Sequence record: MH719082.1
Origin: Escherichia phage vB_EcoM_IME392
Length of the DNA stretch: 64,000 bases
Strand: one strand, 5' to 3'
Both the position numbers and the translations under genes were made by a program. The notes under the pieces are model-generated. The model saw only the letters and a list, made by a program, of their open reading frames with translations, did not search any database and was not told where the DNA came from. Position 1 is the stretch's first letter. Every line of letters begins with the position of its first letter. This document shows, in pieces, positions 1,740 through 18,056 of this stretch.

Positions 1740-2711
1740 CTAGCTAAACTTATACCAGCGAGGTCTCATACGGATCTCGTGATTCAGTTTATGTAGTTTC
1801 GAGAATTCGCAGAATGAGTTGGTGAACATCTGACGAGTATAGAACCGCTCATCCTCCGGCATGAAGTGGAACCATTTCTCCGGCTCCCATGCATACCCGA
1901 AATGAGCACATATCTCTTTGATGTTCTGATACCACCATTCCACGAACATCTGGTAGCCGCAAGGAGGGTTCTGGTCATTAAGCATGTACCATACCCCATC
2001 CTGCGTCCCGGGTCCACATACGATAGCATCGTTATCTGTGTACGCAGTCTCTTTAGAGTAGGACATAGTTGCCCAGCATTGATATGCCATGAACGGACCT
2101 AATCCAGATACCTGTAACAGATGCTCGATGGCCTCGGTAGCGAACGGAGACTTCCATGCCAGTAAGATAGGATCACTGTAGGTCTTCACCAGATAGGCTC
2201 TGGCAGCTACACTGTACTTAATATCCTCTGGACATACTTCATTAGCCATCTTAACTGCTGTGCTAAGGAAGTAGGCATTTGATTGCTGTGGAGCAGTGAA
2301 CGGAGGACCATCCTCATAACGACGTAGCTCTTCACGACCCATGTTATGTATGTCGTCATAGCTCATCTCATAAAGAGGAAGGACTCTGCGGAAGCGATCC
2401 ATATATGAATCACCACGGTTTATCATCTGGAAGAGTACCACGTTAAGCGCCTTACTCTCCCAGCTTAGGGAATCGTTCTCCAGAATGTTCTTGATAGCCC
2501 ATACTGTTTCACGATCGTGCTTACGGAACACGTTAGTGAATTTAAACTTACTAATCCACTTATGTTCTGTCCACGGAGGAGGTAGCTTAAGTATCTCCTT
2601 CTTATAATAAACCTCAGTCCGCTCGCGGTTATACTCCACATACTCACGTAGCTCCTCGGGATTTATCATCCCGAGTAACCCGTCGAAGTGCAAACCTAAC
2701 GGTTTAGACAT
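1740..2711 (-). CDS. Hypothetical protein of the DNA-modification module (323 aa, Trp/Tyr-rich)
   Basis: ORF with an upstream promoter-like element and an RBS. Its position lies between the kinase and the BGT-like gene. No motif is recognised by eye. Confidence 0.45.
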   Translation of the reverse strand: MSKPLGLHFDGLLGMINPEELREYVEYNRERTEVYYKKEILKLPPPWTEHKWISKFKFTNVFRKHDRETVWAIKNILENDSLSWESKALNVVLFQMINRGDSYMDRFRRVLPLYEMSYDDIHNMGREELRRYEDGPPFTAPQQSNAYFLSTAVKMANEVCPEDIKYSVAARAYLVKTYSDPILLAWKSPFATEAIEHLLQVSGLGPFMAYQCWATMSYSKETAYTDNDAIVCGPGTQDGVWYMLNDQNPPCGYQMFVEWWYQNIKEICAHFGYAWEPEKWFHFMPEDERFYTRQMFTNSFCEFSKLHKLNHEIRMRPRWYKFS

Positions 2712-3790
2712 TAAAGAATACCTTCTTTGGTAAAGTAGTCTATTACTTCATCCTGAAGTTCTTGTGCGTAATCCTTGCGCAGATATAGATTCTCATACTG
2801 ATGTTTCAGCAGAGCATCACGATCTTTCAGTTTCTCTGCAATCTCCGCATTACTGGAGACGATCAGAGGAGCCAGTAGCTCTTCGGGGACGCCGCTCCGG
2901 ATTATTGTTCCAGCAGCATCTTTATCCACCAGCATCAGAGTACCAGAGCTCAGGTATTCGTAATAACGGTTAGGTGGGCTGGTATAGAACGAATTACTGG
3001 AGTTCCAGTCTTCGATAAGCAGTACCGCTGCATATTTAGCCACTTCATCCAGCATCTCTGACAGCTTAAACTTAGGCAGCCAGTTAATCGGAGCAGCAGG
3101 TCCCAGCCACTTACGTTCTTTAGGATCCAGCTCTTCCCAGTTTTCCTGCTCGTAGCCGTCAAATCCTGCAAGACCACCAGTATGTTTAGCGATGGACATC
3201 TGAGCTTTGTAGCTCGGCACCGACATAAACAGTTCCAGACCATCTTGCTGGGAGAAGTACTGAGTGAACTTATGGAAGCGGCCTTCACGAGCAGCACCGT
3301 AATACAGCAGGCTATTGTCCGGCTTATCTGACGATCCATAGCGAGGCTTACGACCAGGAACGTAGGTAAGACGGTTCCAGTTAATGTGATGATAGTTCTC
3401 TTCGCTAGGAGAATACTGATTACCCCAGGAAGTACGTTCAAATGCTGCTACAACTTTAAATACAGTAGCTGCGGTGATGTGTCTCCACTGCGGACCCTGG
3501 ATACGCATCTTAGACGAGTAATCCTGTCCAATCCAGTAGAACTTAGCTCCGACATCTGCCTGGTCTACCCAGAACTTATACATCTCGTCGCGGAACTTAC
3601 AGAAGGTAGGAACACCATTGATGGCGATAATCACGTCATATTTAGTGCCATCTTCCATAGCCTTAACGAACTTAGGAGTATCGTCCAACAGGTCAGCTTG
3701 AAGTCCGTAGGCTAACCAGGAAGCCAGAGTATTACTGGCAATGATGGATTTATCGCTGCATGGCGAAAAGTTAGTTACTGCAATCTTCAT
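2711..3790 (-). CDS. DNA beta-glucosyltransferase-like glycosyltransferase (T4 BGT-like, GT-B)
   Basis: N-term MKIAVTNF resembles T4 beta-gt MKIAIINMG. LLYYGAAREGRFHK matches T4 BGT DVIYGGSFRSGQRE. AVLLIEDWNSSNSFYTSPPNRYYEYLSSGTLMLVD matches BGT ALIIGDKNYNDNFITLRVWETMASDAVMLID. Length is 359 aa, against 351 aa for T4 BGT. RBS GGAGAAATTAAACATG. Confidence 0.6.
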   Translation of the reverse strand: MKIAVTNFSPCSDKSIIASNTLASWLAYGLQADLLDDTPKFVKAMEDGTKYDVIIAINGVPTFCKFRDEMYKFWVDQADVGAKFYWIGQDYSSKMRIQGPQWRHITAATVFKVVAAFERTSWGNQYSPSEENYHHINWNRLTYVPGRKPRYGSSDKPDNSLLYYGAAREGRFHKFTQYFSQQDGLELFMSVPSYKAQMSIAKHTGGLAGFDGYEQENWEELDPKERKWLGPAAPINWLPKFKLSEMLDEVAKYAAVLLIEDWNSSNSFYTSPPNRYYEYLSSGTLMLVDKDAAGTIIRSGVPEELLAPLIVSSNAEIAEKLKDRDALLKHQYENLYLRKDYAQELQDEVIDYFTKEGIL

Positions 3791-3815
3791 GTTTAATTTC
3801 TCCGTAGGCTGTCAC

Positions 3816-3848
3816 AATTTAACAGCCTTTTAGCTCATCAAAGAAGCG
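3816..3848 (-). promoter_or_regulatory. Conserved promoter-like element (copy 2) upstream of BGT-like gene
   Basis: CAATTTAACAGCCTTTTAGCTCATCAAAGAAGCG. Overlaps the 3' end of the GT2 gene. Confidence 0.5.
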
Positions 3849-4872
3849 AGTTAGCTGATGCCCAGCTCAGCCAGTTATCGTTGAGATCGGTCAGGTAGGA
3901 GTAATCCTTATTCAGACCGAATACAGTACGGTTAGTTCCGTCGAACTTCATTATACCAGCGCCAGGAGCTCTGATGATTGCATCTTCCGTAGCCAGACAA
4001 TATTCTTTCAAGTATTCCTGGATGTTGGGACGAATACGACGGAAGGAACTATCTGCCGAGTCATAGTGGAACATATCTGCGCAGTGCCACTGTACGTAGG
4101 ATTTATCCGGACGGCTGAGTAGTTCATTACGGGTAACCATATCTTTAGGAGAATATCCCAGCTTAGCTACAGTGACTTCGTGAATACCTCCACCATTAGA
4201 CGAAGTATCCATCAGCCAGTTTTCGTCCCAGTAGAACGAAGTACCAGTACCAGTTACCTGTCCAACCTTCCAGCCCATCGCCATACCTTTAAACAACAGG
4301 TAGCAATCTTCTCCTACGGTCAACTGTTGGAAGGTTATATCGAACAGCCAGAACATCTTCTCACTGGTCTTGACCATGATACCGAGGTCAGTGGCCGGAG
4401 CAGTGTTATTATGTGACTGACGATCGCATAGTTCAACAATCTTGTAGTTACGATTCTTGAAGCTACGGACGAACGCCATCTCAAACTCAGATCCCTCGAA
4501 GTCTATAACGGAACGGTCCAGATGGAAAATATTATCTGCGAACCAGACATCATCATCCACGAAGTAGCAGATGTCTGGACACCAGTTCTGATCCTCCATT
4601 AAAATCCATGCCTTATCAAGAGCATGAGCTCGGATTCTTCCGATTACCGGATTATCGTACTTAGGACGATGCCAGAAATTAAACTGCTCGTCCCCACCGA
4701 ACTGCTCTTCCAGAACTGCCTTATCTTCTTCGGAGGCATCCTGCATAAAGTAGAAGAAACGATACTCGATAGAGTCGTCAGTCTTCTTAGCATCTTTGAA
4801 CGACTGAATCTGACGGAGTACCGACTTCATACGATGATAGGTTGGGATGATAAAAGCCACTTTGGTAGTCAT
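3838..4872 (-). CDS. Family-2 glycosyltransferase (GT-A fold)
   Basis: N-terminal VAFIIPTYHR (GT2 IIPTYN-type motif) and DXD motif YFVDDDVWF. Confidence 0.65.
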   Translation of the reverse strand: MTTKVAFIIPTYHRMKSVLRQIQSFKDAKKTDDSIEYRFFYFMQDASEEDKAVLEEQFGGDEQFNFWHRPKYDNPVIGRIRAHALDKAWILMEDQNWCPDICYFVDDDVWFADNIFHLDRSVIDFEGSEFEMAFVRSFKNRNYKIVELCDRQSHNNTAPATDLGIMVKTSEKMFWLFDITFQQLTVGEDCYLLFKGMAMGWKVGQVTGTGTSFYWDENWLMDTSSNGGGIHEVTVAKLGYSPKDMVTRNELLSRPDKSYVQWHCADMFHYDSADSSFRRIRPNIQEYLKEYCLATEDAIIRAPGAGIMKFDGTNRTVFGLNKDYSYLTDLNDNWLSWASANSLL

Positions 4873-4878
4873 ATTTAT

Positions 4879-5490
4879 TTATCCAATTTGACGAACTAAG
4901 CGAAACCCTTCGGCGTACGGCCACTGGGCAGAATATCCACGTAAGGTGGCTAGAGCTAAGATACTCTGGGTATCTCGGTCTGACTTAATCTGGGAGTCGA
5001 ATCGTCCCATAGCCTGGCACTTACACTCAATATCGTCCTTATTCAGACGCTCGAAGTAATTAGGTTCCATCTGACCGAACTGGGTCAGGGACTCGGCATA
5101 CTCATATTCCAGGATAAGCCAGTTATACGCTCGGAGAGCTACACGAGCAGCATGATTAACTAGTTGATGGTCCTGGTGTAGGCTACTGAACGGAATATAG
5201 ACTACATCCGGCCTGATTTTAGCAACATAGTCCGCAATATCCTTAGCCAATTGCGGAATATCCTTCTGAGTCATACCATCGCCTGTGGAGGCATCGTTAC
5301 GCTCCAGGCAATGTACTTCTTTGATATTCGGATAGACACCGAATGCTGCTTCGGCTTCACCACGACGGGTCTCGTCCGGAGCAGTTACTTCGAGGATGAA
5401 AAATTGGTCGTCGCGGAATTTGCTCATAATACCTCCGCAACCCAGAATCTCATCATCGTGATGTGGGCTGATAATCAATCGTGACTTCAT
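4879..5490 (-). CDS. PIG-L/LmbE-family de-N-acetylase (GlcNAc deacetylase-like)
   Basis: Signature SPHHDDEILGCGG near the N-terminus and the second zinc-ligand motif HQDHQ. The 203-aa size is typical of MshB/BshB/LmbE proteins. Confidence 0.75.
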   Translation of the reverse strand: MKSRLIISPHHDDEILGCGGIMSKFRDDQFFILEVTAPDETRRGEAEAAFGVYPNIKEVHCLERNDASTGDGMTQKDIPQLAKDIADYVAKIRPDVVYIPFSSLHQDHQLVNHAARVALRAYNWLILEYEYAESLTQFGQMEPNYFERLNKDDIECKCQAMGRFDSQIKSDRDTQSILALATLRGYSAQWPYAEGFRLVRQIG

Positions 5491-5553: not shown

Positions 5554-5588
5554 CACCTTAACAGCCTTTTAGGTCATCAAACAGGAGG
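5554..5588 (-). promoter_or_regulatory. Conserved promoter-like element (copy 3) upstream of PIG-L gene
   Basis: CACCTTAACAGCCTTTTAGGTCATCAAACAGGAGG. A hairpin/terminator follows at 5497..5532. Confidence 0.45.
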
Positions 5589-6959
5589 AGTTTCCTTAGC
5601 CAAGAATACTTTAGGTACAAAGATCTTGAGGAACCCGAATAGAATACACAATACCCCAATCAGTACCGGAACAGCCGATACAGCTACCAGAGTCTTCGTT
5701 ACAGTTACTACGTCACCACCTGCCCAGTTAAGTGCAGCAGCAACTACACCCATGCTTACAATCCAGAATACACGAGTTCTAGGAGCGGTCATGGACTCTA
5801 CCGTAATACCTGCTGAGTCATGACCTGTAATAAAGAACAGAATCACAGACACGAGGGTAATTACTGAGAATATCCATCCGCCTGGGAAATTAGCCAGAAG
5901 CTGGAAGATATCCTGAGCACCATGTTGCAAACCGGCTACACCGAATACGGTAAACCATACGTTACTGATAATGGTAGGGAACAGTACACATCCCAGGATC
6001 AGTTCGCGAATAGTACGGCCGTAAGAGATACGTGCCACAAACGCTCCGACGAATAATGCCCAACCTACCCAGGCTGCATAGTAAGCATAAGGCCAGCTAG
6101 CCAGCCATTGCTTCTCTTCAGCAGTACTGCCAATGTTTACCGACATAGGAATAATCTGGAGCAGATAGCTGCCAGAATAGGTGATGGTCTTCCAGAGGTA
6201 TTCAAAGAATGTACCACTTACAGCAACGAATGCCATAATAGATAGAGCTACGATTACATTATATCTGGATAACCACTTAACCCCACGATCGACACCAGTT
6301 ACGGCACTAAGTACAGTGCCCAGAGTCAGGAGTGCGATAATGGTGTAAGGACCAACATCCACACCAAGGAACTCTTTAAATCCAGAACTGATCGGGCCTA
6401 CTGCGTAGACGAACGACAGGGTTAAGCCTATGATGGTCGAGAAGAGTAAGCTTATCGTATTAAGGTTATTCAGAGTTCGGGACTTGAATAACTGATTAAG
6501 CGGACGGTCTTCACCACGTACATGCAGTAAGTACCCGAATGCCACCCCTACGACTGCATACACAGCCCATGCATTAAGTCCCCAGTCAAAGAAGGTAGTT
6601 ACCATATTCTGACGTTCGGACATACCCTCCTGATGATGGTACATAGGTTCGAGTACGCCATAATAAATCATGGATACACCCATACCGGTACTAAACATCA
6701 TAGAGTAATAGGTAAAGCGATTGTATTTCGGAGTACCTTTACCCAGCTTAATGTTACCATGTTTGCTGAATACAAAGAATGCCAGGAACGCCAGGAAGAT
6801 CAGCGAAGACCAGGTAAATATGAATCCATACTGAGATATAAATACAGACTTACTCCAGTCCATTACAGCACCAAACTGGGTGGGAGCAAACATAATGGCG
6901 AGTACAATACCCACCGTTACCAGCACCGTCCCCCAGGTAACTACCTTTGAATCGGACAT
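5577..6959 (-). CDS. BCCT-family (betaine/carnitine/choline) secondary transporter
   Basis: 460-aa polytopic membrane protein. N-terminal FSKHGNIKLG motif and the BCCT signature WPYAYYAAWVGWALFVGAFVARISYGRTIREL (cf. W..FYWAWW.SW.PFVG.FIARIS.GRTIRE). Confidence 0.85.
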   Translation of the reverse strand: MSDSKVVTWGTVLVTVGIVLAIMFAPTQFGAVMDWSKSVFISQYGFIFTWSSLIFLAFLAFFVFSKHGNIKLGKGTPKYNRFTYYSMMFSTGMGVSMIYYGVLEPMYHHQEGMSERQNMVTTFFDWGLNAWAVYAVVGVAFGYLLHVRGEDRPLNQLFKSRTLNNLNTISLLFSTIIGLTLSFVYAVGPISSGFKEFLGVDVGPYTIIALLTLGTVLSAVTGVDRGVKWLSRYNVIVALSIMAFVAVSGTFFEYLWKTITYSGSYLLQIIPMSVNIGSTAEEKQWLASWPYAYYAAWVGWALFVGAFVARISYGRTIRELILGCVLFPTIISNVWFTVFGVAGLQHGAQDIFQLLANFPGGWIFSVITLVSVILFFITGHDSAGITVESMTAPRTRVFWIVSMGVVAAALNWAGGDVVTVTKTLVAVSAVPVLIGVLCILFGFLKIFVPKVFLAKETPPV

Positions 6960-7972: not shown

Positions 7973-8713
7973 TTACTTTAATTCGGAGAGATCTGCGATC
8001 TTCACCTTAGCTGATACATCCCAGATTCCTTCACCAAATCCGGTATCTTCCAGCAGCTTAGGCACTTCACGTTTCTGTACCTTAGATTGCTCGTACTTAA
8101 GCAGAGGAATATTACCGGTCTTATCTGATTGATCCCACAGATAAGTAGCAGCACCGATGTTATCGAACAGTGCGAGATCTGGATTAAACTGGGTAAGGAG
8201 TCGGCAGTCCCAGTGAGACTTATGTTCCTCGAAAGGATTAGTTTCCGTGCCACGCTGACGATACTCATAGTTAGGAGTACCGATCACGATTTTAGCCTTA
8301 GACTGGAATAGCTTAGACAACACCATAAGCCCGTCTTCGCTATCCAGATGCTCCAACACATCCAGCCAGATAATAGTGCCGAATTTATCCAGCTCTTCAA
8401 TAGGAAGATCTTTCAACAGTTCAACGATATTGCAGATATAGATATCGCTATATACATTTACACTGCCTTTGATGTAGTCTTCGCAGATGTCCAGACCTGT
8501 AATCTGACCATCGAATCCTGCGTTACGGAGAGCAAGACCAATTTCTCCACGACCTAATCCCATATCCAGGATTGGCCCGGAGATAATTTCGTTACGGAGC
8601 ATCCATTGGAGAAAGTGCTTCTGGACTAAGTAGGAGGTGCCTCCGTTGCCCAGTGAAGCCTTCGTGACCTTAGTACCAGGAACGAAATTACACTCGATAT
8701 GTTTACCAAACAT
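7973..8713 (-). CDS. SAM-dependent methyltransferase (class I Rossmann)
   Basis: Motif I-like ILDMGLGRGEIGLAL (cf. VLDLGCGTG), and an acidic residue after beta-2 in GLDICED. Confidence 0.55.
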   Translation of the reverse strand: MFGKHIECNFVPGTKVTKASLGNGGTSYLVQKHFLQWMLRNEIISGPILDMGLGRGEIGLALRNAGFDGQITGLDICEDYIKGSVNVYSDIYICNIVELLKDLPIEELDKFGTIIWLDVLEHLDSEDGLMVLSKLFQSKAKIVIGTPNYEYRQRGTETNPFEEHKSHWDCRLLTQFNPDLALFDNIGAATYLWDQSDKTGNIPLLKYEQSKVQKREVPKLLEDTGFGEGIWDVSAKVKIADLSELK

Positions 8714-8736
8714 GTTCTGTCCTCATTAGTTTCGAC

Positions 8737-8770
8737 ACCTTAACAGCCTTTGGAGCCGTAAAAGAAGTGG
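8737..8770 (-). promoter_or_regulatory. Conserved promoter-like element (copy 5) upstream of methyltransferase gene
   Basis: CACCTTAACAGCCTTTGGAGCCGTAAAAGAAGTGG. Preceded, in the direction of transcription, by the terminator at 8781..8812. Confidence 0.5.
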
Positions 8771-8780
8771 TATTGTACAT

Positions 8781-8812
8781 ATTCAAAAATTAGGGTGGCC
8801 GAAGCCACCCTA
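8781..8812 (-). terminator. Rho-independent terminator after topoisomerase medium subunit
   Basis: Minus strand: TAGGGTGGC-UUCG-GCCACCCTA followed by ATTTTTGAAT. Confidence 0.7.
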
Positions 8813-8817
8813 GTTAG

Positions 8818-10065
8818 TTACAGTTTACCGATCATCTTCTGAATCATCTCGTCAGAAGTCTGATTCTCTACCTTAGCACGACGTTCTTGCAGATTAGCAA
8901 TGCGGTCGTCGTGATCTTTCTTACGTAGCATGCTGATGCTACGGCTAAGGCAGGAATTCAACACTTCCTGGGTAATACCGAGAGCTTTGATGATCTGAGC
9001 ATCAGACTTATCCTGCATAACCAGCTCGCCCACTTTAGGAAGAATCTGGTAAATCTCGATGTCTCGGTCAATCTTCTTAAGAGACTCAGTCTTATGGACG
9101 GAGAATGCCTGATTGTAGAGAGCCATCGTGACTGCAATCCAGTCGCGAATACCCATCGTCACCAGTTGACCATTGTAGGCTACCTGGATACGATGCGAGC
9201 GGTTCATGTAAGCAATATTCATGCATGCTTCGTGAACCTCGTCCATATCGATGGTCCTGATACGGGGAGCCTTCATTACTCGGATATAGATCTTATCCTT
9301 GGACATGTTCTTGACCAGGATCTTACCTTCTGATAACCACTTATTCAGGAACCCGATGCGAGGAGTAATTACCTCACCAGACCCGATGATGTCGATGGTG
9401 TCGGTATTGACGCGAGTTACCTTAAGGGTAAGGCCTAAGCGACCTACACCAGTTTCCCATAAGGACTTAAGGTCTGACTTACTCGGCACGATATCATACC
9501 CGTACTGAGCCTTAAGCAGATTATAATCGTCATGCTTGTAGGCTTCCAGCAGACTCTCGTAAGTGAATGCTGGGATACGGGACTGAATACCAGTAGCCCA
9601 TGAGAAGGTACCATACATCAGAGCATACGGAATAGGCACTGGAAGGTATGCGTATTCCATCTTCTCTTCACCTTCAACCTGCGGAACATAGTCCGCTAGA
9701 CCGAAGTAGTATTCTGCACGATCTTCGTTCAGGCCAACCTTCGTGTAACGAGGAGCAGCACCAGGAACTTCTTCCAGCAACTTAACGCCGAAAGATCCCT
9801 GACCATCAATAGCACCGATGCGAGCAAGACGGGAAATAGTCCCATCGATAGACTGGTCACCGAATGGGTGTAGCGACTGAGTTTCTGAGATAGCGCTCAG
9901 AGTCCCCACCAGCTTCCCACGAGCAATGCTATTCAGAGCCATGTAGATACGGCGCTGGGCAGGAATCAGGCCATCGATACCGGGAACTACACGATGAAGA
10001 GCACAATACACACTGTAGTCAGTGTAGTTCTTGGTGATGAATTCAGAAATCTTTACCTGTTCCAT
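8818..10065 (-). CDS. Type II DNA topoisomerase medium subunit (T4 gp52-like, GyrA-type cleavage domain)
   Basis: 415 aa, immediately downstream of the large subunit. The size and position match the T4 gene 39/52 arrangement. Confidence 0.65.
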   Translation of the reverse strand: MEQVKISEFITKNYTDYSVYCALHRVVPGIDGLIPAQRRIYMALNSIARGKLVGTLSAISETQSLHPFGDQSIDGTISRLARIGAIDGQGSFGVKLLEEVPGAAPRYTKVGLNEDRAEYYFGLADYVPQVEGEEKMEYAYLPVPIPYALMYGTFSWATGIQSRIPAFTYESLLEAYKHDDYNLLKAQYGYDIVPSKSDLKSLWETGVGRLGLTLKVTRVNTDTIDIIGSGEVITPRIGFLNKWLSEGKILVKNMSKDKIYIRVMKAPRIRTIDMDEVHEACMNIAYMNRSHRIQVAYNGQLVTMGIRDWIAVTMALYNQAFSVHKTESLKKIDRDIEIYQILPKVGELVMQDKSDAQIIKALGITQEVLNSCLSRSISMLRKKDHDDRIANLQERRAKVENQTSDEMIQKMIGKL

Positions 10066-10067
10066 AA

Positions 10068-12053
10068 TTACTCCTTAAACAGACCGTAGTCTTCTAACAG
10101 TTGGCGACGAGCACGAGATGAGTACAGCAACTTACGAGCGGCATCGAGATGCTCTTCATTATCATCGTAGGTTACCTGGATAAGACGGCGAGATTTCGAG
10201 TTAATGATGAATTGCTCAGTTTCTTCTTCGGTATATGACCCGAGTCCCTTACGACGTTCAACATAGCACTTATCGAAGTCGATCTTATCCTTCTCGTCAG
10301 CGTAGTAGAACTCGGTCTTCTTACCATTCTTAACTACATAGAACGGAGCTTCGAGTTTATACAGACGACCATCTTTAACCAGCTCTGGAGCATGGATAAG
10401 GAAGATTGAGCTAATGAGGTTACTGATGTGCTGACCATCAACATCAAGGTCGGTCATAATGATGATCTTACCGTAACGAGCCTTATCTATGTCAAACATC
10501 TGGCCCATACCACACCCGATAGTATTGATGATCGCCAGCAGCTCTGGGTTATTCACGAATTCCATGATATCCATGGAAGCCGAGTTACGCATCTTACCGC
10601 GAAGAGGAAGCACCGACTGATACTCATTACGCAACTTGATGATATTACCAGAAGCAGACGGACCCTCTGTGATGAACAGCTCACGAAGATCCCAGCGGTC
10701 GGACGGAGATTCGTAGATCTTCGCCATGTCACCATCCATAGCGGCCTTACGGTGATCATCACCCATCACCAGCTTAGACTTAATGAAGTCCATGTTGGAG
10801 AGTTTATTCAGGCTAGCTTTGTAAGCCAGGATCTTGGCAATCAGAGCATCAAAGAATTGCTTATTCTTCTCGTATACCAGGCTGAAGTAGAATGTGAGCT
10901 GACTCAGGCATTCTTTCTCGTAGAAGAAGTACTCGCCATAATAGTCGTAATCGTTGATTTGCTCATCATTCAGCATCAACTTATTCTTAGCCATGATTTC
11001 CCAGTCGCTCCAGGACATACCGAGGCCAGTTAACTTCTCCTTAGTCTGCGAGGAGAATGCTGTACGATAGCTGGAGAAGACGTTAGTGAACACGATCAAT
11101 CCCAGCTTAGCATCACCAACAGTGATAGCAGAGTTAACTTTATTCAGCATACCGCCGAGCGCTCTCGTGACCAGCTTCTCATGCAGACCACCATGCGGGT
11201 TATTGATCAAGTTGATCATGTCTACATGGGAGTAGGACATATTCTTATCAGAGTAGCCCAACTCACCAGAGAAGGTCAGACGATCGTTGAACGAGAACTC
11301 GTACTTGACTGTAGTATCGAGGAACAGCTTCTCATTCTCTGCAACATCACGACGAAAATCCCAGGTAGCCAGAGCTTCACCATTAACGGTGATAGTTGCA
11401 TCACGACCAATCAGGGAGATCTTCAGAGGAACAGTATCCACATCAGACCAGATGCTGCGGTACAGAGTCGCATCAGGCACCATGAAGACTGCTGTGGAGA
11501 AGTCGGTAGCCTTTAACGTCTCGAGCACTTCGTCTGGGAAGCCATCGTCGTGAAGATCATTCAGATCATTGATCACTCCATCGATTTCCATAACACCACG
11601 GCGGAATCCGAGGACATAGAACTGACCTGGCTCCATAGGGATGTGTGCCTTATCTCCCTGCATTACGCGACGGATTACAACGAATCGCTCGGACACTGCG
11701 TTAACAGCGGAGCTACCTACGCCATGGGTACCAGAGGTAATTTCACGGTTATCGCCCAGCTTAGAGCCAGCATGCAGATCTGTTACAGTAGAGAACAGAA
11801 TAGATTTAGACGGATCTTCCGGATCAGCGTAGATAGGAATACCACGTCCGTTATCGGTAACCAACTTGTAGGCTTCACGGTTAATGATCTGCACTAGGTT
11901 AGCATAACCATTAAGCAGCTCGTCCTCCGCATTATTGATTATTTCCTGGAGAGGATGAGTGTAGTTAATCGGGTCACCGAGATACATGGATACGTTCTGA
12001 CGAACGTTATCAGGGTAACGCAATCTTGTGATTTCAATAGCATGTTCTGACAT
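10068..12053 (-). CDS. Type II DNA topoisomerase large subunit (T4 gp39-like, GyrB-type ATPase + TOPRIM)
   Basis: GHKL ATPase motifs EIINNAEDE, DNGRGIP and GTHGVG. TOPRIM IIMTDLDVDGQHI. Confidence 0.85.
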   Translation of the reverse strand: MSEHAIEITRLRYPDNVRQNVSMYLGDPINYTHPLQEIINNAEDELLNGYANLVQIINREAYKLVTDNGRGIPIYADPEDPSKSILFSTVTDLHAGSKLGDNREITSGTHGVGSSAVNAVSERFVVIRRVMQGDKAHIPMEPGQFYVLGFRRGVMEIDGVINDLNDLHDDGFPDEVLETLKATDFSTAVFMVPDATLYRSIWSDVDTVPLKISLIGRDATITVNGEALATWDFRRDVAENEKLFLDTTVKYEFSFNDRLTFSGELGYSDKNMSYSHVDMINLINNPHGGLHEKLVTRALGGMLNKVNSAITVGDAKLGLIVFTNVFSSYRTAFSSQTKEKLTGLGMSWSDWEIMAKNKLMLNDEQINDYDYYGEYFFYEKECLSQLTFYFSLVYEKNKQFFDALIAKILAYKASLNKLSNMDFIKSKLVMGDDHRKAAMDGDMAKIYESPSDRWDLRELFITEGPSASGNIIKLRNEYQSVLPLRGKMRNSASMDIMEFVNNPELLAIINTIGCGMGQMFDIDKARYGKIIIMTDLDVDGQHISNLISSIFLIHAPELVKDGRLYKLEAPFYVVKNGKKTEFYYADEKDKIDFDKCYVERRKGLGSYTEEETEQFIINSKSRRLIQVTYDDNEEHLDAARKLLYSSRARRQLLEDYGLFKE

Positions 12054-12085: not shown

Positions 12086-12120
12086 CAGTTTAACAGCCTT
12101 TGGAGGCCTCAAAGGAGCGG
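12086..12120 (-). promoter_or_regulatory. Conserved promoter-like element (copy 6) upstream of topoisomerase large subunit
   Basis: CAGTTTAACAGCCTTTGGAGGCCTCAAAGGAGCGG. Confidence 0.5.
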
Positions 12121-12752
12121 TTCACGAACAGGACTAAATCCTCTACTCTGGACTTATCTACCCACTCTGTTCTTCCTGGTAAGGACCTATTAGACTCGGA
12201 GAAGAAAGATAATCTCACTTTTGATTCTAAATCCACTCCCTCTTCTTTAGGCATCTCGATTAAGATTAGCGGGGTCATACCGATGCCTAATCCATCTAAT
12301 CTTCTTTCTATATTTGAAGTAATCCCATATTTAGCATTTCCAGATTGGTCCAATACGATATAAAAGACCACCTTACCTTCTGGAATGGTAGATATCGCTA
12401 GGTTCTTAATCACAGAGTTAGCGTATTCAGGATTCAACCATCGTTTATGATTTGAAGAGGATATCACTTTAGACATCTTCTTCTGGTAGTTCTCATCTTC
12501 CCACATTTTAATGTTGCGATTAGTCATGGAAACAGACCTAGCCCTGGTGGCGCATTCTGATCTTCCACATGTAGGACGATAGCCCTTAATCACGGATTTA
12601 AAGGAGCAGGGTTTTCCACATGAACATATTTTTACAGGAAAGAATTTTAAGTAATATTCATGCGGAGTTAAGCCATGAGATTTGGCATGGGAGGGAAATG
12701 CCTGGCCTCTTACTTCGGCAGAGCATATTCTACATTTATGATTCATAATCAT
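12090..12752 (-). CDS. Zn-finger / GIY-YIG-like endonuclease (homing-endonuclease-like)
   Basis: Several CxxC pairs at the N-terminus. The C-terminal VVFYIVLDQSGNAKYGITSNIERR fits GIY-(x9-11)-YIG...R. It sits directly upstream of the topoisomerase genes, a known homing-endonuclease hotspot in T4-like phages. Confidence 0.4.
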   Translation of the reverse strand: MIMNHKCRICSAEVRGQAFPSHAKSHGLTPHEYYLKFFPVKICSCGKPCSFKSVIKGYRPTCGRSECATRARSVSMTNRNIKMWEDENYQKKMSKVISSSNHKRWLNPEYANSVIKNLAISTIPEGKVVFYIVLDQSGNAKYGITSNIERRLDGLGIGMTPLILIEMPKEEGVDLESKVRLSFFSESNRSLPGRTEWVDKSRVEDLVLFVNRSFEASKGC

Positions 12753-13342: not shown

Positions 13343-13368
13343 ACACAAAAATGGGGTCCGAAGACCCC
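13343..13368 (-). terminator. Rho-independent terminator after Mre11-Rad50 gene
   Basis: Minus strand: GGGGTC-UUCG-GACCCC followed by ATTTTTGTGTAG. Confidence 0.65.
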
Positions 13369-13373
13369 ATCAA

Positions 13374-16139
13374 CTACTCTTCCATAAACGTAGTTACGTT
13401 ATTGGAAAGGTAGGCACCAATTTTAGTGTTATATCTCTGGAAGGTAGGAACATGGGTAACCAGGATGATGTGGTTAACCGGAATGTCCTGAAGAGCATCA
13501 ATAGCTACGTCCAGAGTATTTACGTCCAGATTTCGCAGAGACTCATCCAGAATCAGACATCCTGCTCCCTTACTGAGGCTAATCAGCTTACCGATGAACA
13601 GTACGTCCACCAGGTTCTGTTGGCCACCAGACAGATCAGCATACGGAATTAACAGATCTCCAACTTTGTATTGAACATCGAAGTCAATCTTGATAGCTCC
13701 GTTAGCCTGTTCACGAACAGTAGAAATTACCATATCTCCACCAGTCATCATAGCAGCTACTTCTTTGAAGATAGAAGCAGTTACATCGCCGCTATTAGTG
13801 AACAGGCTCTGATACTCAACCAGTTTCTGATACTTAGGCTGGAGAATAGCCAACTGCGCATTAGCATCGTCGAGTTTCTTCTGAGCCTCGTCCATACGAG
13901 TCTTCAGACTACGAAGAGTAGCCATAGCGCCGATGGTAGAGTTGATCTCGATTAGCTCCTGCTCCAGCTTAGCCACTTCCTCTTCGAGAACCTGCACGGA
14001 AGGATAGGACTTAGTCTTACTCTTAAGCACTTCCACGTCGCTATTAACGGTATGGATCTTCTGACGAAGAGTAGCCACATCGTTCAGCAGACCGGACTTA
14101 CGTCTTAGTTCGGCTAATTCACTATTCTTAACGTTAAGCTTCTCTCTGAGTTCATCAGACTTAGGAGCCTTACTGATCTCAGCCTCGACAGCATCCAGCT
14201 TAGTAACAGATGCAGATCCTTGGGTTTCGAGATCATCCATCTTAGCTCTGATAGACTTCTCTACTTCTTTAATGTCCTCTTCCTTAAGGGACTGCTTACA
14301 GGTTGGGCACGTAGTAGGGATGTTGCGCATCTCGGTCTCGAGCTTAGTTAACTCCTTCTCTAAGCGAGTTAACTCATTAGTCAGAGATTCACTCTGATTA
14401 TGCAGTGACCGGATGTTACCTTCTACTTCAGATACCTCGGCATCCAGAGTAGTGATTTCGTCCCGGACCTTAGCGAGAGCGGAGTTAACCTCCTCTTCGT
14501 TAAAGTCAATCTTGAACGCAGCCAGAGAATCTTCCAGCATCTGGAGACTCTGTAGCTTACTGTCCAGATTACCCAGCTCACGGATCTTCTGACGAATATC
14601 ATCAATCTGTGGCAGGATTCGAGACTTATCTTCTTCCAGATTACTCACGTCCTTAAGTTTGGAGAAGTCGTGATCCTCCATGGTCTTAAGGACTTCTTCC
14701 TGAGCAGTTACCTGGGTCTGATAGTTACTGATCTCTACCTTACAGTTCTTAGCCGAGGCCTTTGCGACAGCTTCGTACTGGTTAATTACGGTAAGACCGA
14801 GCATCTTCGTGATCAGGTTAATACGTTCGTTGAATCCGAACTGGCTCAAGAACGGAGGACTATTCTGGGAACGATACAGAAGATCGAAGTGTTCGAGGAA
14901 TGGCAACATCTCCCAGAGCTTAGCTTCACGCTCTCGGATACTACCACCATCCATCTCATCACCATCAATCCAGACTCGGAAAGTCTGACCACCAGCCCAA
15001 TGGCGACTGATCAGGAATTCACGACCACCATACTCTAGCATCACTTCTACCAGAAGATGGTCTTGACCGCGTCTCACCACGTTACGAGGACTGTCGCTAC
15101 CAGTTAAGCAGTAGTTAAGAGCTCTCAGCAACGAGGATTTACCGTTACCAGTTTCGCCGTAGAGATAAGTAAGACCTCGCTTAAAGTTAAGCTCCAGCTT
15201 ATCAATACTGCGGAAGTTCTCTACCTTAATACTATTCAAGGTAAAGTTAAGGTCGAAGACCGACTCGGAACGATCAACGTGGGTAGACATCTCATCATGG
15301 ATATCTTTAAGACCCTTTGCCCGAACGACTTTGTCGATTACTTCTTCAACATCGATAGATTTAACTGAGATGCGTGAAGCATCCATCATCTGAGCTCTTT
15401 CACGAACTACCAGATGAGGGTAATTATCCATACCGGCAGGTACTTCATCTTCCCAGTACATCTTGAGGTATTTGTAGGAGTCAGACTCTACCGGAACCCG
15501 CTGCCAGGAAAGATCTTTAAGATCCAGCAGCACCAAGCTACCGTCCTGACAGTCACCCATCCCGTGAGGAATAGGTACGTTAACCGAGTGGGTATGACCG
15601 ATGCTGATAGGACGATGGATGTCACCAGCAAATCCCAGCTCATACTTAGTATCGTCGAACTCCTGACCAAACATAGAGGACAGAGTAATGTGGCCAATAA
15701 GGACATCTACTTTATCTTCGATAAAACTGAAGTCCTGGGTAGGACGCCAGTCGCTAAAGGCGACCTTACGGCCACCTAAGTTCAGGATTTTACCATCGAC
15801 ATATTCTGCCTTACCAGCGAGGATCGGCACCAGTGAGTTCTGGTAGTGATCAGCATCTACTGATTTGGAGTTAATGTCGTGGTTACCCAGAATATAATAA
15901 ATCTCGGTAAACTGCTCACCGAGGATCTCCATAAACTGGGATGTAGCGTGTGCAATTTTAGGCTCATGCTGAGCCTTATGCACTAAGTCGCCAGCGATAG
16001 ACAGACAGGTTACTTTATGTTCCCTGCCCATCTCCGCCATACGATGAGCTAAACCGATAAACTGCTTTAAGCGAAACCCTTCCGAGTTATGCTGCTGAAA
16101 TTCATGGATATGAATATCAGCTACGATCAACATTTTCAT
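13374..16139 (-). CDS. Fused Mre11/SbcD nuclease - Rad50/SbcC ATPase (T4 gp47+gp46 equivalents in one polypeptide)
   Basis: N-terminal phosphoesterase motifs DIHIH, GDLVH, GNHD, GHIT, GDIHRP and GHTH. From about aa 300 onward: Walker A GETGNGKSS, long coiled coils, zinc-hook CPTC, signature LSGGQQN and Walker B LILDE. Confidence 0.75.
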   Translation of the reverse strand: MKMLIVADIHIHEFQQHNSEGFRLKQFIGLAHRMAEMGREHKVTCLSIAGDLVHKAQHEPKIAHATSQFMEILGEQFTEIYYILGNHDINSKSVDADHYQNSLVPILAGKAEYVDGKILNLGGRKVAFSDWRPTQDFSFIEDKVDVLIGHITLSSMFGQEFDDTKYELGFAGDIHRPISIGHTHSVNVPIPHGMGDCQDGSLVLLDLKDLSWQRVPVESDSYKYLKMYWEDEVPAGMDNYPHLVVRERAQMMDASRISVKSIDVEEVIDKVVRAKGLKDIHDEMSTHVDRSESVFDLNFTLNSIKVENFRSIDKLELNFKRGLTYLYGETGNGKSSLLRALNYCLTGSDSPRNVVRRGQDHLLVEVMLEYGGREFLISRHWAGGQTFRVWIDGDEMDGGSIREREAKLWEMLPFLEHFDLLYRSQNSPPFLSQFGFNERINLITKMLGLTVINQYEAVAKASAKNCKVEISNYQTQVTAQEEVLKTMEDHDFSKLKDVSNLEEDKSRILPQIDDIRQKIRELGNLDSKLQSLQMLEDSLAAFKIDFNEEEVNSALAKVRDEITTLDAEVSEVEGNIRSLHNQSESLTNELTRLEKELTKLETEMRNIPTTCPTCKQSLKEEDIKEVEKSIRAKMDDLETQGSASVTKLDAVEAEISKAPKSDELREKLNVKNSELAELRRKSGLLNDVATLRQKIHTVNSDVEVLKSKTKSYPSVQVLEEEVAKLEQELIEINSTIGAMATLRSLKTRMDEAQKKLDDANAQLAILQPKYQKLVEYQSLFTNSGDVTASIFKEVAAMMTGGDMVISTVREQANGAIKIDFDVQYKVGDLLIPYADLSGGQQNLVDVLFIGKLISLSKGAGCLILDESLRNLDVNTLDVAIDALQDIPVNHIILVTHVPTFQRYNTKIGAYLSNNVTTFMEE

Positions 16140-16993
16140 GCCGACTCCAGTATCTTAGCCGTAACGGATCTGTTATATTTACCCAGTACACCATGGAAGT
16201 ACGGAGGGAATCTGAATCCTGGACAGAACTCTTCCAGAGTAGGTAGGATGCGCTGTTGCATCTGTACCTTAGACTCCTGTTCTTTAATGATGCTGTGGAC
16301 TTCTGTATCGGTTAGGATTCTGTCTAGACGCATCAGTTCCATATTAGAACGAATACGGAATTCAACCGATTGGCTTAAGCTACCATCTTTGTAGGCATTA
16401 ATCGCCTCCTTAACAGTGCTTAATCCAGTAGCCACTCCTGGAATGTTGTCGGAGCCGTCCCCGACGATGGCTTTGTAGATGAGATAATCCTTATGATCGT
16501 CCAGATCGTAGGTCTTCATTAACCAAGGAAGATCCACTAAACCATCGTCAGGATTTAAGACACAAGTATTCTCATTAATTGATAAGTACCAGTCACGGTC
16601 ACGAGAATGCAACATAACCGGACGTCCTGAATGAGCATAGTAGTAGCCTAAATCATCGGCTTCCACACCAGACACCTGGATACACTTAATACCCAATGCT
16701 GGGAAGATCTGCTCATGAAGTACATTCATAGCAGCCCACAATGCCTCAAAGCTCTCGTCATACTCACGATTAGCTTTATACTCCGGATTCTTATCTTTAG
16801 GCCTGTATCTCCACTTGCCTCGATCATATAGCATGATTAGCTCGGAGTTATATCCGTCTTCCTTAATCAACTTCGCTACACTACCAATAGTGGAGGAGAC
16901 CGTAGGACCTAAGTCCTGGGACTTACCGGCTGCGAACCAGTTACGAAGAGTCAGCCACTGACAATCGACTGGTATTAACGGGATGTCATTCAT
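16136..16993 (-). CDS. RNase H / 5'-3' flap endonuclease (T4 rnh / FEN family)
   Basis: Motifs YKANR and GVEADDLGYYY (cf. Pol I 5' nuclease GYEADD). Confidence 0.7.
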   Translation of the reverse strand: MNDIPLIPVDCQWLTLRNWFAAGKSQDLGPTVSSTIGSVAKLIKEDGYNSELIMLYDRGKWRYRPKDKNPEYKANREYDESFEALWAAMNVLHEQIFPALGIKCIQVSGVEADDLGYYYAHSGRPVMLHSRDRDWYLSINENTCVLNPDDGLVDLPWLMKTYDLDDHKDYLIYKAIVGDGSDNIPGVATGLSTVKEAINAYKDGSLSQSVEFRIRSNMELMRLDRILTDTEVHSIIKEQESKVQMQQRILPTLEEFCPGFRFPPYFHGVLGKYNRSVTAKILESA

Positions 16994-17045: not shown

Positions 17046-18056
17046 TTAATTTTTACGGAACTTGGCGAAACGGGAAGCTGCACCACCTTCTTCCTGACCT
17101 TCGTCAGACTTATCTTCGCCGGCATCTTCGACTTTATCTTCAGACTTCTCTTCGGACTTAGTTTCAGATTTATCTTCACCAGCTTCGTCAGACTTAGCCT
17201 GATCTTCGGTAGGCTCGGACTTAGCGTCAGACTTAGTATCTTCAACTTTATCGTCTGATTTAGCTTCTTCAGCCTTAGCCTCTTCCTCAGCTTTGAGCTC
17301 TTCGAAGCCATCTTCACCAACTAACGGCAGACCCTTAGCCTTACGCTGGGAGCGAATTTCGTCCAGATCTTTACGGACACGCTTAACCAGACCTACGTAC
17401 TTATCTTTATCGAAACCTTCACGAATATAAGCCTGAGACAGAGGCTGGTAAGTCTGATCCACAACTACCGGATCAGCTTTGCTGAACAGCGGAGTGAAAG
17501 TTACAGATCCCTGGTTACCACGTACCACGGTAATTTTAACCGGAGATCCTTTGACGTCTTTATCCAGCATACCTTCCAGAACTTCTGGAGAGTCTTCCGC
17601 CAGCGCCGTAATGAAGTCGGTCAGTGCGTTAGCCACTTTACCGTTACCGATCACCGCATACAGAGTATTCGGCTTCCAGTTATCAGACGGAGTGTCGGTT
17701 TTCTGCAGGAAGAAGTAGAACAGGATGTTGTACTTCAGACCGTATTTCCAGTGATTGTACTCATTCAGCTCTTCGAGCATGTCATCCAGCTCGGCATAGT
17801 TGAAGTTCTCAGGAAGATCTTCACAGTCAGACGGAGTCTGAATACCATAACTGAAGTAACCGTGAGTACGGACTTCGCGATACAGGTTACCGACAGGGTC
17901 AGTGATGATACGACCCTGATGGCTACCTTCTGGTAAGAACGTAGCATTTGGGAAGTTACCGGTACCGCCGGACTTCTCTTTACGTTCTTTCATTTTACCT
18001 GCGAGGGCTTTGATACCGGCTACGTCTAACTTCTTAACTTGAGTTTGTTCAGTCAT
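17046..18056 (-). CDS. Putative ssDNA-binding protein with an acidic C-terminal tail
   Basis: C-terminal about 70 aa are extremely D/E/K/S rich (EEAKAEEAKSDDKVED...). Position next to RNase H and replication genes. No clear gp32 Zn motif. Confidence 0.4.
   Translation of the reverse strand: MTEQTQVKKLDVAGIKALAGKMKERKEKSGGTGNFPNATFLPEGSHQGRIITDPVGNLYREVRTHGYFSYGIQTPSDCEDLPENFNYAELDDMLEELNEYNHWKYGLKYNILFYFFLQKTDTPSDNWKPNTLYAVIGNGKVANALTDFITALAEDSPEVLEGMLDKDVKGSPVKITVVRGNQGSVTFTPLFSKADPVVVDQTYQPLSQAYIREGFDKDKYVGLVKRVRKDLDEIRSQRKAKGLPLVGEDGFEELKAEEEAKAEEAKSDDKVEDTKSDAKSEPTEDQAKSDEAGEDKSETKSEEKSEDKVEDAGEDKSDEGQEEGGAASRFAKFRKN

Follow-up and report, generated by a model that had tools for sequence, protein, structure and literature searches.

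A Mre11-Rad50 fusion encoded by a single open reading frame in Escherichia phage vB_EcoM_IME392

We examined a 64,000-nucleotide stretch (the window) of Escherichia phage vB_EcoM_IME392 (IME392; 116,460 bp; sequence record MH719082.1), and in it a minus-strand gene at 13374..16139 that the original prediction, made from the sequence alone, had read as Mre11 (SbcD/gp47) and Rad50 (SbcC/gp46) joined in one polypeptide of 921 amino acids (aa). The gene is indeed an uninterrupted open reading frame (ORF) of 921 codons, with an ATG start and a TAG stop in the ORF list, and its two halves were identified as Mre11 and Rad50 independently, by sequence and by fold. An identical protein is deposited in GenBank for this phage as AXY86089.1, where it is labelled “hypothetical protein”. 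A GGAG ribosome-binding site (16145..16148, read from the sequence, on the minus strand like every feature of the gene given below) lies 5 nucleotides (nt) 5′ of the ATG, which overlaps the stop of the upstream FEN/5′-3′ exonuclease gene as ATGA; the overlap suggests translational coupling of the two genes. A hairpin resembling an intrinsic terminator, found by a terminator scan and visible in the sequence (13350..13371; 9-bp stem, TTCG loop and T-rich tail), begins 3 nt past the stop codon. A promoter scan around the fused gene returned no more sites than shuffled sequence and was uninformative on transcription starts.

The N-terminal half of the protein contains a Mre11/SbcD-type phosphoesterase core (aa 1-190; 15570..16139). 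Five motif positions could be mapped in the translation by alignment to T4 gp47: motif I, DIHIH (aa 8-12; 16104-16118); motif II, GD (aa 50-51; within 15984-15995); motif III, GNHD (aa 85-88; 15876-15887); motif IV, GH (aa 149-150; within 15687-15698); and motif V, GDIH (aa 172-175; 15615-15626). The original prediction had counted six phosphoesterase motifs in about the first 300 aa; the five mapped here fall within aa 8-175, and the fifth is a variant. A second candidate for motif V, G-H-T-H at aa 181-184 (the end of the Pfam Metallophos match), was rejected because its positions vary across the family, while G-D-I-H at 172-175 is invariant and aligned with the G-H-F-H of T4 gp47. The layout of the remainder was taken from an AlphaFold (AF2) model of the fused protein, built on a 17-sequence alignment with a mean predicted local distance difference test score (pLDDT) of 84.9; a model of the N-terminal 300 aa alone, made without an alignment, had a mean pLDDT of 33.6 and was discarded. 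After the core comes a small four-strand beta module (aa 197-246; 15402..15551) where the Mre11 capping domain sits, followed by a flexible linker (aa 247-263; 15351..15401; pLDDT <50 at aa 250-260) and two short helices (aa 264-274 and 278-285; 15285..15350; pLDDT 81-92).

We found that this half is closest to Mre11. Its family profile aligned to T4 gp47 over 270 columns (hhalign probability 96%, E 3.7e-9), and the best solved relatives of the 300-residue N-terminal profile were exclusively Mre11/SbcD. Generic metallophosphoesterases had lower structural scores with <200 residues aligned, and the alignment of the nuclease half to Mre11/SbcD continued beyond the phosphoesterase core. The nuclease half is therefore of the Mre11-type fold (core plus capping domain), nearer to Mre11/SbcD than to other metallophosphoesterases. 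In the alignment to T4 gp47, a protein of 339 residues, the first short helix (aa 264-280) falls on gp47 residues 281-299, and L277 is nearly invariant in the family alignment. In the single-chain AF2 model both helices have the position and size expected of the Mre11 C-terminal helix-loop-helix, after the disordered linker; the model thus makes aa 264-285 a candidate helix-loop-helix Rad50-binding element kept beside the fusion point. The region between the nuclease core and Rad50 is almost free of indels in the family alignment, indicating that it acts as folded protein and not as a loose tether.

The C-terminal part is a complete bipartite Rad50/SbcC ABC ATPase (aa ~298-921) with an inserted coiled coil and CxxC hook. 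It aligns to T4 gp46 from gp46 residue 3 (equivalent to aa 298), with CPTC falling upon CPTC, and Rad50/SbcC proteins are its top structural matches. Domain annotation, a check proposed with the original prediction, gave a concordant picture along the whole chain: Pfam Metallophos at aa 1-185 (E 1.7e-9), AAA_23 at aa 303-604 and SMC_N at aa 301-348, and a PHROG 77 “SbcC-like” subunit spanning aa 294-915 (E 1.3e-49). The N-terminal ATPase lobe (aa 300-449; 14793..15242) carries Walker A (GETGNGKSS, aa 328-336; 15132-15158) and a Q-loop (LYRSQN, aa 421-426; 14862-14879). It leads into the first coiled-coil arm (aa 450-605; 14325..14792; AF2 helices 450-487, 492-539 and 548-605), then a zinc hook (aa 606-619; 14283..14324) with CPTC at aa 611-614 (14298-14309), and back along the second arm (aa 620-778; 13806..14282; AF2 helices 620-657, 662-708 and 715-778). 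The hook was placed by alignment and by a sub-threshold Pfam Rad50_zn_hook match at aa 609-639 (E 4.8e-4; 20.3 bits vs a curated cut-off of 24.3). In the AF2 model the two arms of ~155 aa, with matching helix breaks, flank the hook as an antiparallel coiled coil between the head lobes. The C-terminal ATPase lobe (aa 779-921; 13377..13805) supplies the signature LSGGQ (aa 836-840; 13620-13634), Walker B (CLILDE, aa 861-866; 13542-13559), a D-loop (SLRNLD; 13524-13541) and an H-loop (VTHV, aa 894-897; 13449-13460). All the elements originally claimed for an in-frame Rad50 (Walker A, coiled coils, CPTC, signature and Walker B) were therefore seen in the translation and the model. Residues G328, G331, G333, K334, S335, C611, C614, S837, G839, D865 and E866 are invariant in the family (both cysteines in 17/17 sequences), and H896 is nearly so.

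Very probably, this gene supplies the only Mre11-Rad50 machine that the phage has for processing the ends of double-strand breaks, in one chain and with an activity predicted from its sequence. Searches with family hidden Markov models, with T4 gp46/gp47 by phmmer and with motif patterns found no second Mre11/Rad50 gene in the 64-kb window or in the whole 111-kb genome of EP_H11, the nearest relative in GenBank, although very divergent paralogues could escape them. Several points weigh against this assignment. The nuclease half is only weakly similar to characterised Mre11 (E 0.02 in a single-sequence PDB search), only motifs I-III align in a profile search against solved structures, and every NCBIfam Rad50/Mre11 match to the fused protein falls far under its curated cut-off. 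Cleavage within the disordered segment at aa 250-260 is conceivable in vivo and would leave two chains. The searchable literature, with most subscription journals outside its coverage, held no report of a natural fusion that had been purified or studied experimentally. Finally, motif V reads G-D-I-H and departs from the canonical G-H-x-H.

This last departure opens the possibility that the nuclease half is altered or inactive, serving mainly as a DNA-binding or dimerisation scaffold or having another metal or substrate preference. The replacement is family-wide: of 177 aligned members, 161 read G-D-[IYV]-H, and motif III reads GQHD in about half (N86 replaced by Gln). Both variable positions, the first His of motif V and the Asn of motif III, would correspond to second-metal-ion ligands in the P. 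furiosus Mre11 structure. Yet the invariant residues of the nuclease half (D8, H10, G50, D51, G85, H87, H150, G172, D173, I174 and H175) include all the remaining catalytic positions, namely D8, H10, D51, H87, H150 and H175, the last being the second His of motif V. Asp is itself able to serve as a metal ligand, and the strict invariance of G-D-I-H suggests selection on the active site rather than decay. Moreover, G-H-x-H is found in the same columns in 8 of the 177, including the T4 gp47 reference and Yersinia phage YerA41, whose branch has G-H-I-H, so that both spellings appear interchangeable within one family. We consider an inactive or repurposed nuclease unlikely and treat G-D-I-H as a within-family variant that does not exclude the protein from the Mre11/SbcD nucleases; the Asp-for-His exchange points to a second metal site that differs slightly, and not to a loss of activity.

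The surroundings of the gene bear on a second alternative. On the minus strand lies a replication module in the order DNA helicase, DnaB-like helicase, two unknown proteins, FEN exonuclease (matching PF02739, 5_3_exonuc_N), the fused gene, three small ORFs, and the topoisomerase II large and medium subunits. Since PADLOC returned LmuB matches to the fused protein (E 1e-28), and Lamassu LmuB is likewise a Rad50-like ABC ATPase with a coiled coil, we considered whether the protein could be a Lamassu-like SMC-based conflict system used in defence or counter-defence, its Rad50-like part acting as a sensor that governs the nuclease fused to it as effector. The match to the SbcC-like PHROG (1e-49) is far stronger than the LmuB one, however, and Rad50/SbcC lead the structural matches. 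The would-be effector is a true Mre11-fold nuclease, aligned to Mre11/SbcD past the phosphoesterase core, and the CxxC hook is invariant. Unlike in Lamassu, no LmuA- or LmuC-like partner adjoins the gene, which belongs to a phage replication module, between the FEN and topoisomerase II genes, in an order shared with Acinetobacter phage Ab1-TPeters, and which is the sole Mre11/Rad50 homologue found in the genome. A Lamassu-like role is thus very unlikely and was rejected on context and fold.

Matching T4 gp46 residue 3 to aa 298 places the junction between the two halves at aa ~286-299 (THVDRSESVFDLNF; 15243..15284), inside the interval of about 15150..15300 that had been suggested for it. It contains no stop, frameshift or homopolymer, F299 is invariant, and 14 residues lead from the second short helix to the first Rad50 strand. 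The other two frames hold 4 and 13 stops over codons 250-330, and the whole fused gene is without homopolymer runs of 6 or more. A separate Rad50 made from an internal start was also considered and dropped: the sole nearby methionine, M283, is unconserved in the family alignment.

We then compared the frame with that of EP_H11, which has 96% DNA identity and covers codons 199-921, the junction included. There were 81 substitutions in 2174 nt and no indel; 70 substitutions fell at third codon positions, and the codon changes comprised 75 synonymous and 5 non-synonymous ones. By this pattern of substitution, the fused frame is under purifying selection. The EP_H11 record begins within the fused gene, the 3′ part of which appears in the annotation as a hypothetical protein of 695 aa with an internal start while the 5′ part is unannotated; codons 199-239 are present at both ends of the record (extracts 1-2174 and 10655-11373), as terminal redundancy.

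The fusion was present in every relative examined. The 90%-identity cluster holds seven database copies from NCBI, Logan and ENA (AXY86089.1 and six others), five of them of 921 aa, and 19 metagenomic homologues with identities down to 23% are nearly all 918-950 aa long, with a query coverage of 100%. When 1.84 billion representatives were searched exhaustively with the profile, 1,148 clusters were found at E ≤1e-30. Among the best 150 representative clusters of these 1,148, the match crossed the junction in all 150, and 127 gave single end-to-end matches (counted from the table). Full-length tblastn matches in one piece came from isolated Acinetobacter, Ralstonia, Rhizobium, Vibrio, Thermus and Yersinia phages, and in about 20 isolates the frame runs unbroken through the junction. 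When the nuclease domain alone was used as the query, its nearest relatives, including those of a Cobetia and a Microcystis phage, were parts of long genes whose products are labelled SbcC-like, SMC-family, AAA-domain or coil-containing; T5-like “exonuclease subunit 1” genes, which are unfused, appeared only among the weakest matches. A profile search through a word-indexed protein database added few relatives, none of them named. The split-or-fused comparison of orthologues put forward with the original prediction therefore came out on the side of fusion, and its concern about an assembly artefact, for which resequencing had been proposed, could be settled from independent assemblies and the pattern of substitutions, with no need for reads. 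The idea that the single ORF is an assembly or sequencing artefact masking a stop or frameshift between two genes could appeal to T4, which keeps the genes apart with small ORFs (46.1 and 46.2) between them, and to the short annotated piece in EP_H11, but its chance is vanishingly small when that piece results from the record origin cutting the gene (the two record ends together rebuild the same ORF) and when independent full-length copies, the indel-free and mostly synonymous divergence, the unbroken frame in all the representatives and isolated phages above, and the lack of long homopolymers all speak against it. On these sequence comparisons the fusion is real and conserved, and an artefact is excluded.

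Some homologues show further peculiarities. Two of them (P0017 and P0027) carry the intein Pfam family PF14890, and the profile match of P0017 and of P0127 (1344 aa) is interrupted at position ~334, just past the Walker A lysine. The break suggests an intein inserted in the P-loop; for P0127 it is the common break point that points to one. In Rhizobium phage RHph_TM39, a 443-aa ORF (extract 1174-2505) just upstream of the fused gene (2573-5020) repeats the first ~480 residues of that gene's product (nuclease and Rad50 N lobe) as a truncated copy in tandem, possibly an assembly duplication, the record being labelled “partial genome”.

SbcCD, T4 gp46/gp47 and the archaeal and eukaryotic Mre11-Rad50 complexes suggest how such a chain might work. 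Two chains would form a homodimer equivalent to M2R2, with Mre11-Mre11 contacts, ATP-driven engagement of the Rad50 heads, and a zinc hook joining the coiled-coil tips. ATP binding and hydrolysis would clamp DNA ends and place the nuclease for cutting and resection, and the resected ends would feed recombination-dependent replication and repair, perhaps also host-DNA breakdown. The role of T4 gp46/gp47 in recombination-dependent replication is established, and that of the IME392 protein is presumed to be the same. In the usual arrangement, a helix-loop-helix at the Mre11 C-terminus tethers the subunits by binding the base of the Rad50 coiled coil. The covalent link may replace or reinforce this tether, and the helices at aa 264-285 probably still bind the coiled-coil base.

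The first description of natural Mre11/Rad50 (SbcD/SbcC) fusions dates from 2011, when Yoshida, Claverie and Ogata reported them from Mimivirus (R555), Bacillus phage 0305phi8-36, Clostridium kluyveri and Deferribacter plasmids, and several eukaryotes (PMC3175470). These fusions are non-monophyletic, and many metagenomic homologues of R555 were judged likely to be phage-derived (PMC3175470). The same authors calculated a distance of ~28 Å between the C-terminus of Mre11 and the N-terminus of Rad50 in the T. maritima complex, which 9-12 residues can bridge (PMC3175470). The IME392 protein shares with the 2011 fusions the order of an N-terminal Mre11-like nuclease and a C-terminal Rad50-like ATPase in one ORF, and a stretch of capping-plus-helix length retained ahead of the junction; as in the viral cases, the fused version is the only one present in the genome. 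The phage lineages found here are absent from the 13 cases of that study (PMC3175470). Accordingly, calling the architecture uncommon holds relative to T4, T5 and bacteria, whereas as a claim of novelty it does not, given the 2011 publication and well over a hundred 50%-identity clusters. The architecture has been known since 2011; this phage's gene was previously unannotated.

Searching predicted viral structures with Foldseek, we recovered UniProt A0A385IRC9 (100% identical over 921 aa), other fused-length proteins of 866-1054 aa at E 1e-49 to 1e-69, and Mimiviridae “DNA repair exonuclease” proteins at E~1e-30 with near full-length alignments. The giant-virus fusions are longer (1215-1389 aa) and have 12-14% identity to the IME392 protein over the Foldseek alignment. 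T4 gp47/gp46 shares motifs I-IV and the CPTC hook with it; T4 divides the functions between two genes, its gp47 has G-H-F-H at motif V in place of G-D-I-H, and the identity to its gp46 by BLASTP is about 20%. E. coli SbcCD and archaeal and eukaryotic Mre11-Rad50 consist of separate subunits with the canonical G-H-x-H, and the IME392 arms, of about 155 aa each, are shorter than those of the 1048-aa E. coli SbcC (length from PMC5105663). A closer comparison is provided by gp117 of Yersinia phage YerA41, a homologous Mre11-Rad50 fusion whose GenBank label names a Mre11 N-terminal metallophosphatase domain, and which keeps the canonical G-H-I-H. As annotated, gp117 (827 aa; extract 2405-4888) comprises Mre11, the Rad50 N lobe and the coiled coil, and the Rad50 C-terminal lobe is a separate 185-aa ORF, gp118 (extract 4885-5442), overlapping the gp117 end. 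The split may be genuine, or it may stem from a frameshift or from a sequencing error, the genome being hard to sequence. Phage GN1, which is related to YerA41, gave a one-piece tblastn match up to query residue 896.

YerA41 and IME392 belong to one group of phages, termed RP13-like/SP15-like in two recent papers and defined by a family-A DNA polymerase fused to UDG and by hypermodified thymidine, either proven or predicted (Table 1 of PMC12686479). Its nine members are Carin-5, SP-15, YerA41, phiLo, RP13, RHph_TM30, LiS04, EP_H11 and IME392 (PMC12686479), and the inclusion of IME392 makes its DNA probably thymidine-modified. The fused gene is found in seven of the nine; SP-15 and LiS04 gave no match at the thresholds used. 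The comparison was confined to these nine. Papers mentioning EP_H11, RP13 or YerA41 held nothing on Mre11, Rad50 or SbcC. The isolated carriers of the fused gene largely coincide with the RP13-like group, a correlation only and a lead rather than a result. One could go further and take the fused gene, with Asp for His in motif V and often Gln for Asn in motif III altering the second-metal site of the enzyme, as a derived core gene common to these phages with their bulky hypermodified thymidine, the altered site and the single chain being adaptations for resecting heavily modified DNA, which we regard as rather unlikely; in a weaker version, the enzyme might discriminate modified phage DNA from unmodified host DNA.

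The neighbourhood holds several other ORFs of note. Between the fused gene and the topoisomerase II genes, a Cys-rich ORF of 220 aa (12090-12752, minus strand) has no Pfam or PHROG match and, by eye from the sequence, shows a stretch resembling GIY-YIG (VVFYIV...AKYGIT...R), so that a mobile homing endonuclease is one possibility. The corresponding intergenic interval of EP_H11 is ~415 nt shorter, with no ORF of 220-aa size annotated. Upstream of the fused gene, the EP_H11 FEN gene carries the label “DNA polymerase I”. Two genes upstream in IME392, where a single-strand DNA-binding protein might be expected, a 336-aa protein (17046-18056, minus strand) has no family match and a long, acidic, lysine-rich C-terminal tail of low complexity. 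A 460-aa ORF (5577-6959, minus strand) matches only PHROG 19848 (unknown function, E 2e-60), and the EP_H11 gene syntenic to it, matched by position only (extract 8174-9556), is annotated “high-affinity choline uptake protein BetT”, a doubtful label for a phage gene within a DNA-metabolism module. A myovirus structural module, which includes a tail sheath, a head protease and tail fibres, makes up the plus-strand half of the window.

Together, these findings leave the understanding of Mre11-Rad50 unchanged. New here are the G-D-I-H form of motif V in about 90% of the family and the large overlap of the carriers with the RP13-like phages. The gene for a “hypothetical protein” of IME392, which the record origin cuts in two in EP_H11, can now be given the annotation of the only Mre11-Rad50 enzyme of the phage. 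As a compact single chain of 921 aa with fixed stoichiometry, from a cultivable E. coli phage, it would be convenient for structural and single-molecule work, and the family-wide exchange of Asp for His in motif V offers a simple, testable variation on a well-studied active site.

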